64,000 nucleotides of DNA from Anaerolineae bacterium (GTDB lineage Bacteria > Chloroflexota > Anaerolineae > CG2-30-64-16), in contig JAXGYZ010000002.1 in NCBI GenBank assembly GCA_040772005.1, positions 573,061-637,060 of the forward strand, in the 5' to 3' direction. This document shows, piece by piece, positions 29,057 through 59,814 of this stretch; positions within the stretch are counted from its first letter, which is position 1; each line of letters begins with the position of its first letter. A program made the position numbers and the translations under genes. A model generated the notes under the pieces. It made no database searches. It saw nothing but the letters and a program-made list of their open reading frames with translations, and had not been told where the DNA came from.

Positions 29057-29485
29057 ACACTGGCATCCTGTTCTACTGCACAGATTAAGCCCATGCTCCG
29101 CGGGCCCGGGCCGGTCGCGCCGGCCTGGGATGCGGTGCGTGACATACGCAGGCACGCTGGCCTGTCGCCTCGGTGCGGTCATGACAGTTACCCTGCCACA
29201 GCCACACGCGCAGACAGGCGGCAGATATGGAGCCACCCGGAGCACCCGAATCGATGCGGCACGCTCACGGCTCGGTGCGCCCTCAAGCCAGGGGGTGTCG
29301 CGGCGGGTCAGCGTATCCGAAGCTGCTACGACGGCGTGGCTCGCTATGGCTGCTTGCCTCGCTTCTCACGGCGAGGCACAGCTCCCCTTACAAAAAAAAG
29401 CGGCCCTCCGGAGCAGAACCCCAGCCAGGCCGTCTTGGTATGCGTTCGCATATGTTCCCAAAGAAAAAGAGGAGCGTTTCAGAAA

Positions 29486-29568
29486 TGCCCCCGGCCCGAC
29501 TCGAACGGGCACGCCCTTATGGGCACAGGCCCTCAACCTGCCGTGTATGCCAATTCCACCACGGGGGC
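29486..29568 (-). tRNA. tRNA-Leu (anticodon GAG), 83 nt, long variable arm, no encoded CCA
   Basis: The reverse complement folds as a cloverleaf. The acceptor stem is GCCCCCG/CGGGGGC with discriminator A. The D-arm is GUGGAAUUGGCAUACAC, as in E. coli tRNA-Leu. The anticodon stem is GCAGG/CCUGU with loop UUGAGGG. The variable arm is GCCCAUAAGGGC. The T-arm is GCCCG-UUCGAGU-CGGGC. Confidence 0.85.
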
Positions 29569-29623
29569 ATTGTGACCGTATTATACCGCTTCTCTGTTGC
29601 CTGTCAATAACAGACCCCTTGCT

Positions 29624-54797: not shown

Positions 54798-55172
54798 TCA
54801 GGGTAAGGGTGCGGAAGGTCCCTCGCCGGCCTGGGCGATCTTGCTCTGCACTTCCTGGACGGCCTGCTGCGCCTTCTTGACGTTATCCGCCAGTACGATC
54901 CGGCCACGCTCCTGCACATACTCCACCTGGTCGCGTGTCTGTCCCGCGAGGTGTTGCGCCTGCAGCCGCGCCTCGCGGGCTGCGTCTTCGGCCTGGCGCT
55001 TGGCATCCAGCGCAATCTGCTCGGCCTGGGACTTCAGCCCGGTGGCCTTCTCCTGCAACTGCCGCCGCGTCTCCTCGCCTGGTGTCGGGGCCAGCAACAA
55101 CGCTGCAGCCGCACCCGCCAGCGCACCCAACAGGAACCCCAGGACGAATCCACCATCCTCATTTTCGCTCAT
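54798..55172 (-). CDS. YtxH-domain protein (small stress/membrane-associated coiled-coil protein)
   Basis: GFVLGFLLGALAGAAAALLLAP N-terminal helix, then Q/A/E-rich coiled coil. GGGAGAG RBS. Confidence 0.55.
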   Translation of the reverse strand: MSENEDGGFVLGFLLGALAGAAAALLLAPTPGEETRRQLQEKATGLKSQAEQIALDAKRQAEDAAREARLQAQHLAGQTRDQVEYVQERGRIVLADNVKKAQQAVQEVQSKIAQAGEGPSAPLP

Positions 55173-55230
55173 GGTTGCTCTCCCTTCGTGAACATGCATC
55201 GATCAGGAATCAGACCGGCAGGCACGCAGC

Positions 55231-55518
55231 CTATTTGCGGTGGTTGCGTCCGCCGAACAGGGTGTTGACAGCTTGCCGCGCGCCCGCCGCATAGCTGGAT
55301 ACCTTCACGACCGGTTGAACCAGGTGGTCGCTCATAAAGGTGGCAGTCCCGCGCACCGTGCCGACGGTCTCTTGCGTTGACCGCAAGATGGGAATGACCT
55401 CCTCACGCAACAACTTGACCAGGCGAATAACCTGGATAACGAGTACGATGAGCGTTATCCCGATAATGATCGATTCAAGCGCTAACAAGATAATCGCGAT
55501 ATCACGTGCTGTAGCCAT
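55231..55518 (-). CDS. DUF948-family small membrane protein
   Basis: MATARDIAIILLALESIIIGITLIVLV TM helix, then coiled coil. GGAGG RBS. Confidence 0.55.
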   Translation of the reverse strand: MATARDIAIILLALESIIIGITLIVLVIQVIRLVKLLREEVIPILRSTQETVGTVRGTATFMSDHLVQPVVKVSSYAAGARQAVNTLFGGRNHRK

Positions 55519-55590
55519 TAATCCACCTCCCTCCCATGGCAACAAGTATAGCATAAGAGCCGCAGCGCGTAAAGGTGCTTTCTTTCCCTT

Positions 55591-55908
55591 TCAGGGCACA
55601 GGCAGGTCATCCTGGCGCGGCTGCCATAGGCGCCGGCCCAGGAACAGGGCGGCGAGCGCACCGAGCGAGCCCCAGAGCAGTTGTACATCGCCGATGCGGA
55701 GCCAGCTCAAGCCGGCGAGCAGCCCCAGCAGGTGGCCGACCCCAAACCCCACCAGCCCCACCACCAGGTCGCGAAGCCACTGGCCCCAACTGCCGCCCCG
55801 CCAGAGCGTGAACAGGATGCTGTAGATGAATGCCAGCAGCACGCTCAACCACAGCGCGGGGCTGAGGGCGAGATTCAACAGCCGGTCGAGTGTGCTGCTC
55901 GGAATCAT
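55591..55908 (-). CDS. Hypothetical small membrane protein (105 aa, 3 TM)
   Basis: ATG overlaps the mnmA stop (ATGA). Hydrophobic helices. The long upstream extension was rejected because it overlaps mnmA. Confidence 0.45.
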
Positions 55909-57008
55909 CGTTGCTCCGCCCGTTCGATGATGCCGCCGCCCAGGCAGATGGGGCCGTCGTAGATGACAGCGGCCTGGCCCGGCGTGACCCCGCGCTGAGG
56001 GTCCTCGAACACGACCTCGCACGTGCCAGCGGGCAGCGGCACGACTCGCGCGGGCGCAGGCCGGGCATGGTAGCGAATCTGCACTTCCGCATGGAACGGT
56101 GCGGGCGGCGCCTCGCCGCTGACCCAGTTCACCGGGCCTGTCCACAGCTGCTGCCGACCCAGCTCACCCGCAGGACCGACGACCAGGGCATTGCGGGCCA
56201 CGTCCAGTTCCAGGACATAGAGGGGCTGGCTGGCCGCGATGCCCAGTCCGCTGCGCTGGCCGATGGTGTAGAAGGGCAGCCCGCGGTGACGCCCCAGCTC
56301 GCGGCCGGCGCGGTCGAGAATGGGGCCGGGCTGCACGGCCTCCGCCGCATGGTCGGCCAGGAAGCGGCGGTAGTCGCCGTCCGCGATAAAGCAGAGGTCC
56401 TGGCTGTCGACGCGCGAGGCGGTGGGCAGGCCGCGCGCCGCGGCCAGCTCGCGCACCTCCGGCTTGGTGTAGCCGCCCACTGGAAAGAGTACCTGGGCGA
56501 GGTCGGCCTGGCCGAGCACGCTGAGGACATACGACTGGTCCTTGGCCCGGTCCGCGCCCCGGCGCAACTGGTAGCGGCCCTCTCTGTCCAGGCCGATTTG
56601 TGCATAGTGGCCGGTCGCCAGGTACGCCGCGCCGAGCGAGCGCGCGTAGCGCAGCAGGTGGCCGAAACGGATGTGCCGGTTGCAGGCGAGGCAGGGGTTG
56701 GGCGTCTGGCCGGCGGTGTAGCCCGCGATGAACAGGTCTACGACCTGTGTCTTGAACGTCTCCTCGACGTTGATGACGTAGAACGGGATGCCCAGCCGGT
56801 CGGCCACCCCGCGCGCATCGTGGACCGCCTCCACCGTACAGCAGCGGTTTGTGGCGGCCTCGACAGTGCCGCCCAACGTGGGCGCGACCGGCTCGGACCA
56901 GAGGCGCATCATCACCCCGATGACCTCGTAGCCCTGTTCGAGCAACAGCGCGGCCGCCACGGAGCTGTCTACCCCGCCGCTCATCGCGACAACGACGCGT
57001 TCGGTCAT
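55905..57008 (-). CDS. mnmA: tRNA-specific 2-thiouridylase (tRNA s2U34 synthase)
   Basis: [17 protein letters not shown]-loop; catalytic Cys region NPCLACN. Confidence 0.9.
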
Positions 57009-57010
57009 GC

Positions 57011-57898
57011 TTACCCCAGCTCACCCGGTGGATTGAAGCGCGCGTCATCCAACGACCGGCGGTGGAGCGCGATGACCAGCGCCCCGACCGTTGCGCAGTC
57101 AGGTTCGTCGGGCAGGGTGGTGACGGCCTCCGCTCTCATCAGGTCGGCCTGCAACCCCGCCACCAGATCCATCAACTCAGGATAGGAGTAGCGCCCGCAC
57201 AGAATCTCCTTGAGCCAGTCTGCATCCGGCCGTCGCACCTGCACGATGCCCTCGCCCAGTATCTCGATGCCCATCCGATAGAGGCGCACGAGGTGCATGG
57301 CATGCTTGGTGTCGTAGCCGTGCTGTGCCTCACGCTCGGCGCGTTCGGGGTTTCGGTTCGCGCGCCAGGCTTGATAATCCTGCCAGTGGCGTAGCGCCGC
57401 GCGGTAGCCTCGCTCCTGCCGGGTATCGGCGAAGCGGTAGCCGCCGCGCGGGTTTTCCTTGGCCCCGAATTCCGGGGGGGTGGGCTGGTGGTCCGGCGGA
57501 TTATTGAGCCACCGGTAATGCGTCTCCATCCGCTTGAGCTGGGCCGCGGCATAGCCGGCATACGTCTGGGCCACGCGGCGGGACAGGAATGCCCGCCGGA
57601 TGTCGCGCAACGCCTGCCCATACTCATCGGTGTACAGCACATCCTCATCCGCGGCCCAGAGGATATCAAGCATGTTGGGATTGTTTGCCAGGGCGAGCGA
57701 GACGAACTTGCCGAGGCTGTAGATAACGATCTCTTCGGCGCGGTTCTCATCTTGTTCGAAGCTGTCGAGGCCCAGCAGATAGCGCGCGGGCGGGATGCAC
57801 ACGCCCCGAATGTCCACATCGCTGTGCGGGCCGGCGGTGCCGAACGCCTGGCTGCCCCACACGGCCTTGAAGATGGTGTTGCGCTCAATCCAGTTCAT
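57011..57898 (-). CDS. Pol-beta-superfamily nucleotidyltransferase (predicted nucleotidyltransferase family, PF10127/DUF4037-like)
   Basis: [20 protein letters not shown] (GS-x10-DxD). Stop 3 nt before the mnmA start. Start overlaps its paralogue (ATGA). Confidence 0.6.
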
Positions 57899-58656
57899 GC
57901 TGCAAATCCCCAGCGTACCCGCACGACGAAATCGTCGAGGGCCGCGTAGTTGGTGGGCTCATCCGGCAGCGGGCTGTTGTCGTAAGCAGCCTGTAGTTTC
58001 TCCTGCAACCCGGCCAGCGCACGATCATGTTCGTCAATCGCCAACGAGATCACGGCCTTCTCGGTCGTCTTCGCGGCCACGATGTCCAGCAGATGCGGGT
58101 AACCGTACTCCGGCGCCAGCTCCACCAGGCTTGCGTTGACCTGGCCGGTCCGTAACAGGTGGATGCCCGTCAGACTGACACGATATGCGTACAACAGCGG
58201 CTTCAACCGGCCCATCCCACACAACGCTTCCTTGCGCCACTCCTGCCATTGCGTTCGGGCATAGCCGGCATAGGCCTGGTAGACATGGCGGGCAATGCCC
58301 CCCGCTTGCGTCAGGGCGCGCAGCTCTTCTGCCCAGACGGTATCTAGTACGACCAGCGGCGAAAAAAGCTGTTCCAGGTAGTTGCCGTTCTGGCGCAGCA
58401 GAAGCGTTACGAACTTAACGAGATCGTGGCTCACGAGGTCCACCTCGATGCCATCGAGCAACCACATGCGGTTGACAGTGACGATTGTTTCGCGCAATCC
58501 GATGAACTCGTTGACCGGCAGCACATGGCATGCACGCAGGTCCACATCACTATCAGGCGAAGGGAAGCCATACAGGTGCGCACCGCTGATTGTAGCAAAC
58601 AGGAATGGGTGAGGCAGCGCGCCGGTCAGTGCGCTGCGGTAATCTGTCGGATTCAT
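57895..58656 (-). CDS. Pol-beta-superfamily nucleotidyltransferase, paralogue of the downstream gene
   Basis: ISGAHLYGFPSPDSDVDLRA (SG-x10-DxD). Shares YAGYA...W and C-terminal helical regions with 57011-57898. Confidence 0.6.
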   Translation of the reverse strand: MNPTDYRSALTGALPHPFLFATISGAHLYGFPSPDSDVDLRACHVLPVNEFIGLRETIVTVNRMWLLDGIEVDLVSHDLVKFVTLLLRQNGNYLEQLFSPLVVLDTVWAEELRALTQAGGIARHVYQAYAGYARTQWQEWRKEALCGMGRLKPLLYAYRVSLTGIHLLRTGQVNASLVELAPEYGYPHLLDIVAAKTTEKAVISLAIDEHDRALAGLQEKLQAAYDNSPLPDEPTNYAALDDFVVRVRWGFAA

Positions 58657-58671: not shown

Positions 58672-59814
58672 TCACCCCTCCCGGACTGCCTGGACGATGC
58701 CCGGCAGCTTCGCGAGCACAGCCTCAACATCGGACTCAGTGCTGGCACGGCCCAGGGTCAGCCGCAGCGCGCCGAGCGCGACCGTCGCATCATAGCCCAT
58801 GCCCGTCAGCACGGGGCTGGCCGTCGGTGTGCCGACCGCGCATGCGGACCCGGAGGAGGCGGCGATGCCCGCGAGGTCCAGCGCGATGAGCAGGGATTGT
58901 GCATCGGCGCCGTGGACCAGGAAACTGGCGTGGCCGGGCATGCGCCGGGTCGGATGGCCCGTCAATTCGACGTCGGGGATGGCGGCCAGGATGCCGCTGA
59001 CCAGCCGCTCGCGCAGCGCCAGCAGCCGGGCGGATTCTGCCTCCCGCTCGCCCTGGGCCAGTTCCAGCGCGGTCGCCAGCCCCACGATGTAGGGCACGTT
59101 CTCGGTGCCGGCGCGGCGTCCGCGTTCCTGGCTGCCGCCGGTCTGCGTGGGCAGCAGCCGCGTCCCCTTGCGCACGTAGAGCAGGCCGACGCCCTTCGGC
59201 CCGTAGAATTTGTGCGCGGAAAGCGCCAGCAGGTCCACGTTGAGCGCCTGCACGTCGAGCGGCAGGATGCCGCCCGCCTGCACCGCGTCCGTGTGGAACG
59301 GGACGCCGTGACGCTGCGCGATGGCCCCGAGCTCCGCGATGGGCTCCACCGTGCCCACCTCGTTGTTGGCGTACATCACGCTGATGAGCGCGGTGTCGGG
59401 CCGGATGGCCGCTTCAATCGCCGCAGGGTCCACGAGGCCGGTGTGATCCACCGGCACGACCGTCACGTCGAAATCGAAGTGCTCGGCCAGGTCGGTCAGG
59501 GTATGCAGCACGGCATGGTGCTCGATGGGCGTGGTGATGAGATGGCGGCGGCCCTTCGGGGCCGCGGCCAGCGCGACCCCGCGCAGGGCCAGGTTATCGC
59601 TCTCCGTGCCGCAACTCGTGAAGACGATTTCGGCGGGTTGGCAGCGCAGGATCGCGGCCACGCGCGCGCGCGCATCTTCCAGCGCGGCGGCCGCGCGGCG
59701 GCCCTGTCTGTAAATGCTGGATGCGTTACCGAAGACCTCGGTCCAATATGGTAACATCGCCTCAACGACGCGCGGGTCCACCGGCGTCGTGGCGGAGTGG
59801 TCAAGGTAAATCAT
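58672..59814 (-). CDS. iscS: Cysteine desulfurase (IscS/NifS family, class V aminotransferase)
   Basis: MIYLDHSATTP..., PLP-Lys region SAHKFYGPKG, active-site SSGSACAVG. AGGAG RBS. Confidence 0.85.
   Translation of the reverse strand: MIYLDHSATTPVDPRVVEAMLPYWTEVFGNASSIYRQGRRAAAALEDARARVAAILRCQPAEIVFTSCGTESDNLALRGVALAAAPKGRRHLITTPIEHHAVLHTLTDLAEHFDFDVTVVPVDHTGLVDPAAIEAAIRPDTALISVMYANNEVGTVEPIAELGAIAQRHGVPFHTDAVQAGGILPLDVQALNVDLLALSAHKFYGPKGVGLLYVRKGTRLLPTQTGGSQERGRRAGTENVPYIVGLATALELAQGEREAESARLLALRERLVSGILAAIPDVELTGHPTRRMPGHASFLVHGADAQSLLIALDLAGIAASSGSACAVGTPTASPVLTGMGYDATVALGALRLTLGRASTESDVEAVLAKLPGIVQAVREG

Follow-up and report, generated by a model that had tools for sequence, protein, structure and literature searches.

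An RlaP-family nucleotidyltransferase pair inserted between iscS and mnmA in an Anaerolineae bacterium: a probable cassette for RNA 3′-end repair

We analyzed a stretch of DNA of 64,000 nucleotides from an Anaerolineae bacterium of the phylum Chloroflexota (GenBank assembly GCA_040772005.1, contig JAXGYZ010000002.1, positions 573,061 to 637,060), hereafter referred to as the window. Our subject is a tandem pair of nucleotidyltransferase (NTase) genes that lie between the gene for a cysteine desulfurase (iscS) and that for MnmA, the tRNA 2-thiouridine(34) synthase. Both NTases belong to RlaP (PF10127), a named and biochemically characterized family of RNA repair enzymes, and we refer to them as RlaP-A (A) and RlaP-B (B). 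We propose, with a probability of about 0.72, that the two genes constitute an autonomous two-paralog cassette for RNA 3′-end repair which landed in a housekeeping iscS-mnmA operon. Their position in a thiolation operon is a lineage-specific insertion and indicates no new pathway.

Family membership and catalytic motifs of RlaP-A and RlaP-B

RlaP-A (58656..57895, reverse strand; 253 amino acids, aa) and RlaP-B (57898..57011, reverse strand; 295 aa) were both assigned to PF10127 by Pfam, for which the gathering cut-off is 23. A matched the family over its full length with an E-value of 1.7e-37 (129.9 bits), and the match of B covered its N-terminal half with an E-value of 1.9e-20 (74.1 bits). 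B additionally matched the phage protein family phrog_388 from end to end (E = 4e-61). The NCBIfam scan placed neither protein in a named family, and Pfam returned no match to DUF4037, the type that an earlier reading of the sequence without database searches (the sequence-only reading) had named together with PF10127. The same reading had recognized the two proteins as paralogs of the Pol-beta fold with intact motifs, and this is borne out here. In BLASTP the two are 32% identical across 120 aa of the NTase domain (E = 2e-12), and when their family profiles were compared by HHalign, the whole length was aligned with a probability of 98.8% (E = 5.9e-17). The helical domain of B contains an insertion of ~60 aa relative to that of A.

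The Pol-beta signature, G[S/A]-x9-11-DxD together with a third acidic residue, is present in both proteins. In A it reads G25-A26-x10-D37-V-D39 plus E71/D73, and G25, A26, D37, D39, E71 and D73 are all invariant in an alignment of 22 A-type homologs. The corresponding motif of B is G15-S16-x10-D27-V-D29 plus E57; among 22 B-type homologs, G15, S16, D27 and D29 are invariant and the E57 position is occupied by D or E in 21. The GS-x10-DxD motif that had been read in each protein is thus confirmed for B (GS-x10-DVD) but not for A, which has GA-x10-DVD with the GA being invariant in its subfamily. Structural models from AlphaFold2 show an alpha/beta NTase domain at the N-terminus followed by an all-helical C-terminal domain for both A (pLDDT 88.5) and B (pLDDT 94.6). 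Searches of the Protein Data Bank (PDB) with single sequences and with profiles found no relatives of A or B, and Foldseek against the PDB returned just generic two-domain NTases with low TM-scores. Whether one of the copies had become inactive was considered; both retain their catalytic residues, and neither looks catalytically dead.

The substrate of the family, which had been described as having none known, can now be stated from published work. Two Pseudomonas enzymes, PfRlaP from P. fluorescens and PaRlaP from P. aeruginosa, are encoded between rtcB and rtcA and have been characterized biochemically (bioRxiv 10.64898/2025.12.29.696909). They add one or two nucleoside monophosphates (NMP) to the 3′-OH of RNA, while DNA and protein are not substrates; Mn2+ is the best metal for the reaction (10.64898/2025.12.29.696909). 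RlaP favors tRNA 5′ halves that end at a break in the anticodon loop and restores aminoacylation to tRNA that is missing one anticodon-loop nucleotide, and it has been proposed as an antidote against ribotoxins that excise the wobble nucleotide (10.64898/2025.12.29.696909). An earlier prediction had RlaP replacing nucleotides lost at broken RNA ends ahead of ligation, and NrdC.11 of T4 is cited as a member of the family.

The window proteins resemble the Pseudomonas RlaPs in their PF10127 membership, in the succession of an NTase domain and a helical domain and in the three acidic catalytic residues, and we presume that they, too, attach one or two NMP. They differ in that the Pseudomonas RlaP is a single gene between rtcB and rtcA, whereas the window encodes two paralogs that are embedded in iscS-mnmA, an operon without an RNA ligase. 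Paired, dimeric or fused RlaPs go unmentioned in the biochemical study (10.64898/2025.12.29.696909). The paired form with two active sites is absent from that work, but Burroughs & Aravind 2016, the work that named RlaP, may mention pairs.

Two B-type homologs of 413 aa (P0202 and P0237) carry a C-terminal domain similar to JAB/JAMM metalloproteases (PF14464) with the motif HTHPGG...SQRD. This domain on B-type RlaPs hints at a possible tie to ubiquitin-like or deubiquitinase-type conflict systems.

The conserved RlaP pair, its fusions and its RNA repair neighbors

We examined A-type loci from Planctomycetota, Actinomycetota, Acidobacteriota, Cyanobacteria, Verrucomicrobiota and Chloroflexota for a second RlaP gene. 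Such a paralog was found within 5 kb of the A-type gene in 73 of 83 loci, and it was directly adjacent in 63. The partners are of two classes. The first is a shorter gene, here called B′-type, which lies upstream of A in most phyla and is convergent with it in Streptomyces. The second is the 295-aa B-type, which lies downstream of A in Chloroflexota and some other bacteria. When B-type homologs on other contigs (~50% identity) were looked up, they sat after an RlaP of ~250 aa in three of three cases, and each of the cellular B-type homologs examined is preceded by an A-type gene. The contexts of those three homologs vary and are partly like mobile or defense islands, with HEPN, Eco57I, M78/HTH and transposase genes. 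The unit that is conserved is the RlaP pair, not the pair plus iscS and mnmA.

Relatives of B are abundant in viruses, with 379 in IMG/VR and 864 in GenBank phage records, among them jumbo phages and mycobacteriophages. These phage RlaP-type NTases (phrog_388) match B over its full length, and the identity is 30–44% across hundreds of them. Unlike the cellular B-type genes, which always follow an A-type gene where examined, the viral genes stand alone in 79 of 80 loci.

The relationship between the two paralogs was further explored through fusion proteins. A HMMER search of 1.84 billion cluster representatives with A yielded 2,664 relatives, and the best 150 were inspected. Among these 150 were 24 proteins of 480–725 aa that aligned to A in at least two stretches. 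All 10 of the long proteins that were scanned contain two PF10127 domains, and a motif scan found a B-like GS...SDxD signature together with an A-like GAHxYGF..DSDxDL signature in 22 of the 24. The order of the domains is mostly B′ then A. In one protein of 642 aa (P0404), an A domain is followed by a true B-type domain in the same order as in the window; this B domain is 36% identical to B over its full length, the B-specific insertion included. Repeated fusion in which both active sites were kept is good evidence for joint action of the paralogs and for catalysis by both. Cooperation of A and B themselves is, judging from these comparisons, the most likely arrangement. One further apparent B′-A fusion (L063) was rejected because it is a frameshifted read-through in a metagenome-assembled genome (MAG) from nanopore sequencing; the case for fusion stands on the cluster representatives. 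A scan of metagenomes with A gave seven loci, two of which were informative.

These results indicate that RlaPs often occur as conserved pairs of diverged paralogs with intact active sites and have been repeatedly fused, which suggests a two-subunit or two-specificity form of RNA 3′-end restoration. A form with two active sites could bear on what controls how many nucleotides are added and which ones. At 1.65 kb, the A-B cassette is compact and a suitable candidate for probing this idea.

Clustering of neighboring open reading frames (ORFs) placed Hen1-Pnkp genes beside the pair in 15 of the 83 A-type loci. The clustered neighbor is a bacterial Pnkp of 860–900 aa with kinase, phosphatase and ligase (PF16542) domains according to Pfam. 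Wherever the adjoining ORFs were listed, Pnkp is preceded by a gene of ~470 aa, the size of Hen1, and the one in locus L036 is Hen1 (PF12623, E = 1.9e-112). A Chloroflexota MAG (L038:1887-8753) contains a cluster of five genes for Hen1, Pnkp, a Thg1-like 3′-5′ polymerase, a B′-type RlaP and an A-type RlaP. Given these neighbors, the A-type subfamily is embedded in the RNA healing-and-sealing operons of many bacteria. In the operons of this kind that we compared with the window (L036, L038 and L010), the A-type protein is orthologous to A at ~48–51% identity, has the motif GAHLYGFPSPDSDxDL and always comes with a second RlaP paralog. Their partner, however, is the shorter, upstream B′-type and they have Hen1 and Pnkp adjacent, whereas the partner in the window is the 295-aa, phage-like, downstream B-type, and Pnkp and Hen1 were not found nearby.

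Several loci stand out by their composition. Seven cyanobacterial loci (L009, L016, L017, L023, L044, L046 and L059; four Nostoc, Spirulina, Pleurocapsa and one uncultured Nostoc) lack an RlaP paralog within 5 kb of the A-type gene, in contrast to nearly all other phyla. An ADP-ribosylglycohydrolase gene (PF03747) is conserved before the A-type RlaP in Streptomyces (L033, L040, L047, L052, L061, L068, L069, L076, L079 and L080), an adjacency that may be synteny at the level of the genus. On a metagenome contig from JGI (L002/L003:1-2854), genes for SIR2_2 and a nSTAND1 NTPase, both of defense type, lie ~5 kb upstream of an A-B pair.

Insertion between iscS and mnmA and the alternative roles of the pair

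The ORF analysis bore out the gene order and coordinates first read from the sequence, with the two NTase genes between the desulfurase gene and mnmA on the same strand. The desulfurase is NifS/IscS-like (59814..58672, reverse strand; 380 aa; PF00266, E = 8e-82; TIGR03402, E = 6e-144). Its start was set at MIYLDH, in agreement with homologs of 380–381 aa, rather than at the start of a 413-aa ORF. It is the first gene of the host operon and stands outside the NTase cassette. MnmA (57008..55905, reverse strand; 367 aa; NF001138, E = 5.9e-129) is likewise a gene of the host operon. The stop codon of iscS is separated from the start of A by 15 nucleotides (nt), the genes for A and B overlap by 4 nt with the ATG of B on the stop codon of A (ATGA), and only 2 nt lie between the stop codon of B and the ATG of mnmA. 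The NTase genes are therefore tightly arranged for translational coupling, as the sequence-only reading had noted.

To this layout we compared the neighborhoods of the closest MnmA homologs. The closest syntenic relative (L084; GCA_022707645.1) has an IscS that is 94% and an MnmA that is 87% identical to those of the window and the same synteny on both sides, but its iscS and mnmA are 9 nt apart without NTases. In a second relative (L086; IscS 78%, MnmA 74% identical), iscS and mnmA overlap, again without NTases, and on a JGI contig with an MnmA of 75% identity the two are separated by an aldolase gene on the opposite strand and no NTases. The NTases are thus not co-conserved with iscS and mnmA, despite the synteny of these three loci. 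The pair was present at the iscS-mnmA site in two loci from the same species as the window (L085 and L093) and in one further related lineage (L001/L087), in which A is 77%, B 80%, IscS 80% and MnmA 73% identical. The adjacency is accordingly almost, though not quite, unique to a single genome, a case that had been raised against its significance. In an A-type profile scan of species-representative genomes from six phyla, mnmA adjoined the NTase in none of 80 A-type loci; in one of the 80, the opposite strand carries an IscS-like gene that is unrelated. The link to tRNA thiolation that had been suggested from the gene order is not sustained by this distribution.

Elsewhere in Chloroflexota, A-B pairs with 64–69% identity lie among unrelated genes. 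Their neighbors include a methyltransferase with an FAD oxidoreductase, an epimerase, TerB, a sulfate permease, an ABC-F ATPase, a luciferase-like oxidoreductase and an ABC transporter. The GC content of A is 0.598 and that at third codon positions (GC3) is 0.72, compared with 0.70 and 0.87 for the flanking genes; the GC3 of B is 0.82 versus 0.87 in both iscS and mnmA. Because L084 and L086 have no NTases at this site, the contexts elsewhere are unrelated and GC and GC3 are lower than in the flanks, the pair was inserted between iscS and mnmA genes that were ancestrally tightly joined, and its distribution among close relatives is patchy. The pair is not flanked by convincing repeats, direct or inverted, of the kind left by transposition or integration. 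Direct repeats of 34–35 nt spaced ~710 nt apart were considered as insertion marks and rejected, as they reflect the paralogy of A and B. In one of the conspecific loci (L085:71-957), a deletion of 1 nt (GGGCGAGG-CATCG) splits the B gene into ORFs of 241 and 53 aa, which may be either a fault of the assembly or a first sign that the cassette is decaying.

The flanking genes form a bona fide desulfurase-MnmA pair of the YrvO/IscS-MnmA kind, which makes 2-thiouridine at tRNA position 34 (s2U34) and is translationally coupled in relatives of the window. The NTases differ in not being components of this system, as neither the closest syntenic relatives nor mnmA neighborhoods elsewhere contain them. 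The RlaP pair does not look to be part of the s2U34 pathway, and its position looks to be a historical accident that is at most mildly adaptive.

We propose that the cassette combines a cellular A-type RlaP with a phage-like B-type RlaP, both of PF10127. By homology with the Pseudomonas enzymes, we infer that the A-type and B-type subfamilies act on RNA 3′ ends. Each Pol-beta site, with two Asp and a third acidic residue and dependent on Mn2+, would add one or two nucleotides in an untemplated manner to the 3′-OH of a broken RNA. The preferred target would be the 5′ half of a tRNA after a cut in the anticodon loop. A nucleotide trimmed by a ribotoxin would be replaced in this way and an RNA ligase encoded elsewhere would then seal the break, such that the refilled RNA, most plausibly a tRNA, is restored to full length. 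A and B would most likely act jointly, either as a heteromer or as two enzymes of complementary specificity. The cassette would have entered the iscS-mnmA junction in a Chloroflexota lineage of the Anaerolineae type, and it is now translationally coupled and presumably co-transcribed with iscS and mnmA.

Several observations weigh against this proposal. A tblastn search of the 64-kb window detected no Pnkp, Hen1 or Thg1-like gene, RtcB not having been searched for; we accordingly take the repair partner to be encoded in another part of the genome. The characterized RlaPs are single-gene enzymes of rtcB operons and are from subfamilies other than the A- and B-types. The phage B-types occur alone, which means that B need not act in a heteromer. 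Lastly, the tight coupling at the junction has been kept in two lineages that have diverged to 73–80% identity, possibly because co-expression with mnmA was selected for.

An alternative is that the operon is dedicated to the repair and re-thiolation of wobble U34. Anticodon nucleases such as PrrC and RloC would cut or excise U34 of tRNA-Lys, tRNA-Glu or tRNA-Gln, the RlaP pair would add the U back and IscS-MnmA would rethiolate it after ligation. It is attractive because a newly inserted U34 would need MnmA, and other evidence is compatible with it. RlaP favors the 3′ end of the tRNA 5′ half left by an anticodon-loop break and is a proposed antidote to wobble-excising ribotoxins (10.64898/2025.12.29.696909). 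The tRNAs that MnmA thiolates at U34 (xm5s2U34 tRNAs) are the known targets of anticodon nucleases such as PrrC, RloC and gamma-toxin (PMC2610378, PMC3025547 and PMC2275089). Moreover, the pair sits exactly between iscS and mnmA with the ATGA and 2-nt coupling and has been kept there in the two diverged lineages. If true, such a wobble-U34 repair-rethiolation unit would be the first RNA repair genetically coupled to re-modification. We nonetheless regard it as unlikely. In the closest relative, L084, iscS adjoins mnmA without the pair, mnmA is not adjacent in any of the 80 other A-type loci, and the sister A-B pairs are found in unrelated contexts; the repair genes searched for by tblastn were missing from the operon as well as from the rest of the window.

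We also considered that the pair functions in anti-phage defense or signaling, with NTases that make an oligonucleotide signal, as in Hailong (HalB) or CBASS, and a small membrane protein as the effector. Foldseek pairs A with HalB (E ~2e-4, TM 0.35–0.5, 13–16% identity), which amounts to a generic similarity of fold. Some A-B pairs are near HEPN, Eco57I, SIR2_2/nSTAND1 or transposase genes, and B-type genes are abundant in phages. On the other hand, these TM-scores are low, and ANT(4′) and generic two-domain NTases were found equally. PADLOC (2023) reported nothing above threshold, the one marginal match being to B with an E-value of 0.041. The A-type orthologs associate with Hen1-Pnkp and not with effectors, and the surrounding synteny is that of housekeeping genes. 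In Hailong, the membrane effector HalA accompanies the NTase HalB; the membrane gene of the window instead stays with mnmA, also in relatives that lack the pair, and is not co-inherited with the NTases. A role in defense is consequently improbable. The toxin/antitoxin-like role once suggested for the two genes finds no support either: they are both NTases rather than an MNT-HEPN system, Pfam showed the operon to lack a HEPN domain, and the PADLOC result applies here too.

That the pair modifies a small molecule such as an antibiotic, or a protein such as IscS or MnmA, in the manner of ANT/Lnu-like enzymes or MNT-type antitoxins is very improbable: the best structural matches do include kanamycin nucleotidyltransferase ANT(4′), LinB and AadA, but at 9–15% identity and TM-scores of 0.2–0.47, there were no Pfam or NCBIfam matches to the ANT, Lnu or MNT families, a HEPN partner is missing, and characterized RlaPs label RNA and no proteins (10.64898/2025.12.29.696909), which leaves the idea of a nucleotidylated sulfur-relay component without support.

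Other genes of the operon and features of the window

Three genes follow mnmA on the reverse strand. The first encodes a membrane protein of 105 aa (55908..55591) and overlaps the stop codon of mnmA by ATGA, as had been seen in the sequence. It is followed by the genes for a 107-aa membrane protein (55554..55231) and for a 133-aa protein of the YtxH family (55199..54798), the last of the string. Neither of the two small membrane proteins has a match in Pfam. The 105-aa membrane gene was also found after mnmA in L001, L084, L085 and L086, with identities of 53–100%. Since the relatives without the RlaP pair (L084 and L086) still have it, this gene was assigned to mnmA; it travels with mnmA and not with the NTases, to which it had been linked before. 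The arrangement of mnmA followed by all three genes (54798-55908, reverse strand) is kept in the same four loci, with or without the RlaP pair.

In a scan for promoters and terminators, the promoter-like matches were all weak, and the coding strand showed no internal terminator that was credible. A scan of the whole window at Rfam gathering thresholds gave zero matches, the tRNA model included. ARAGORN identified a tRNA-Leu(GAG) at 29485-29569 on the reverse strand.

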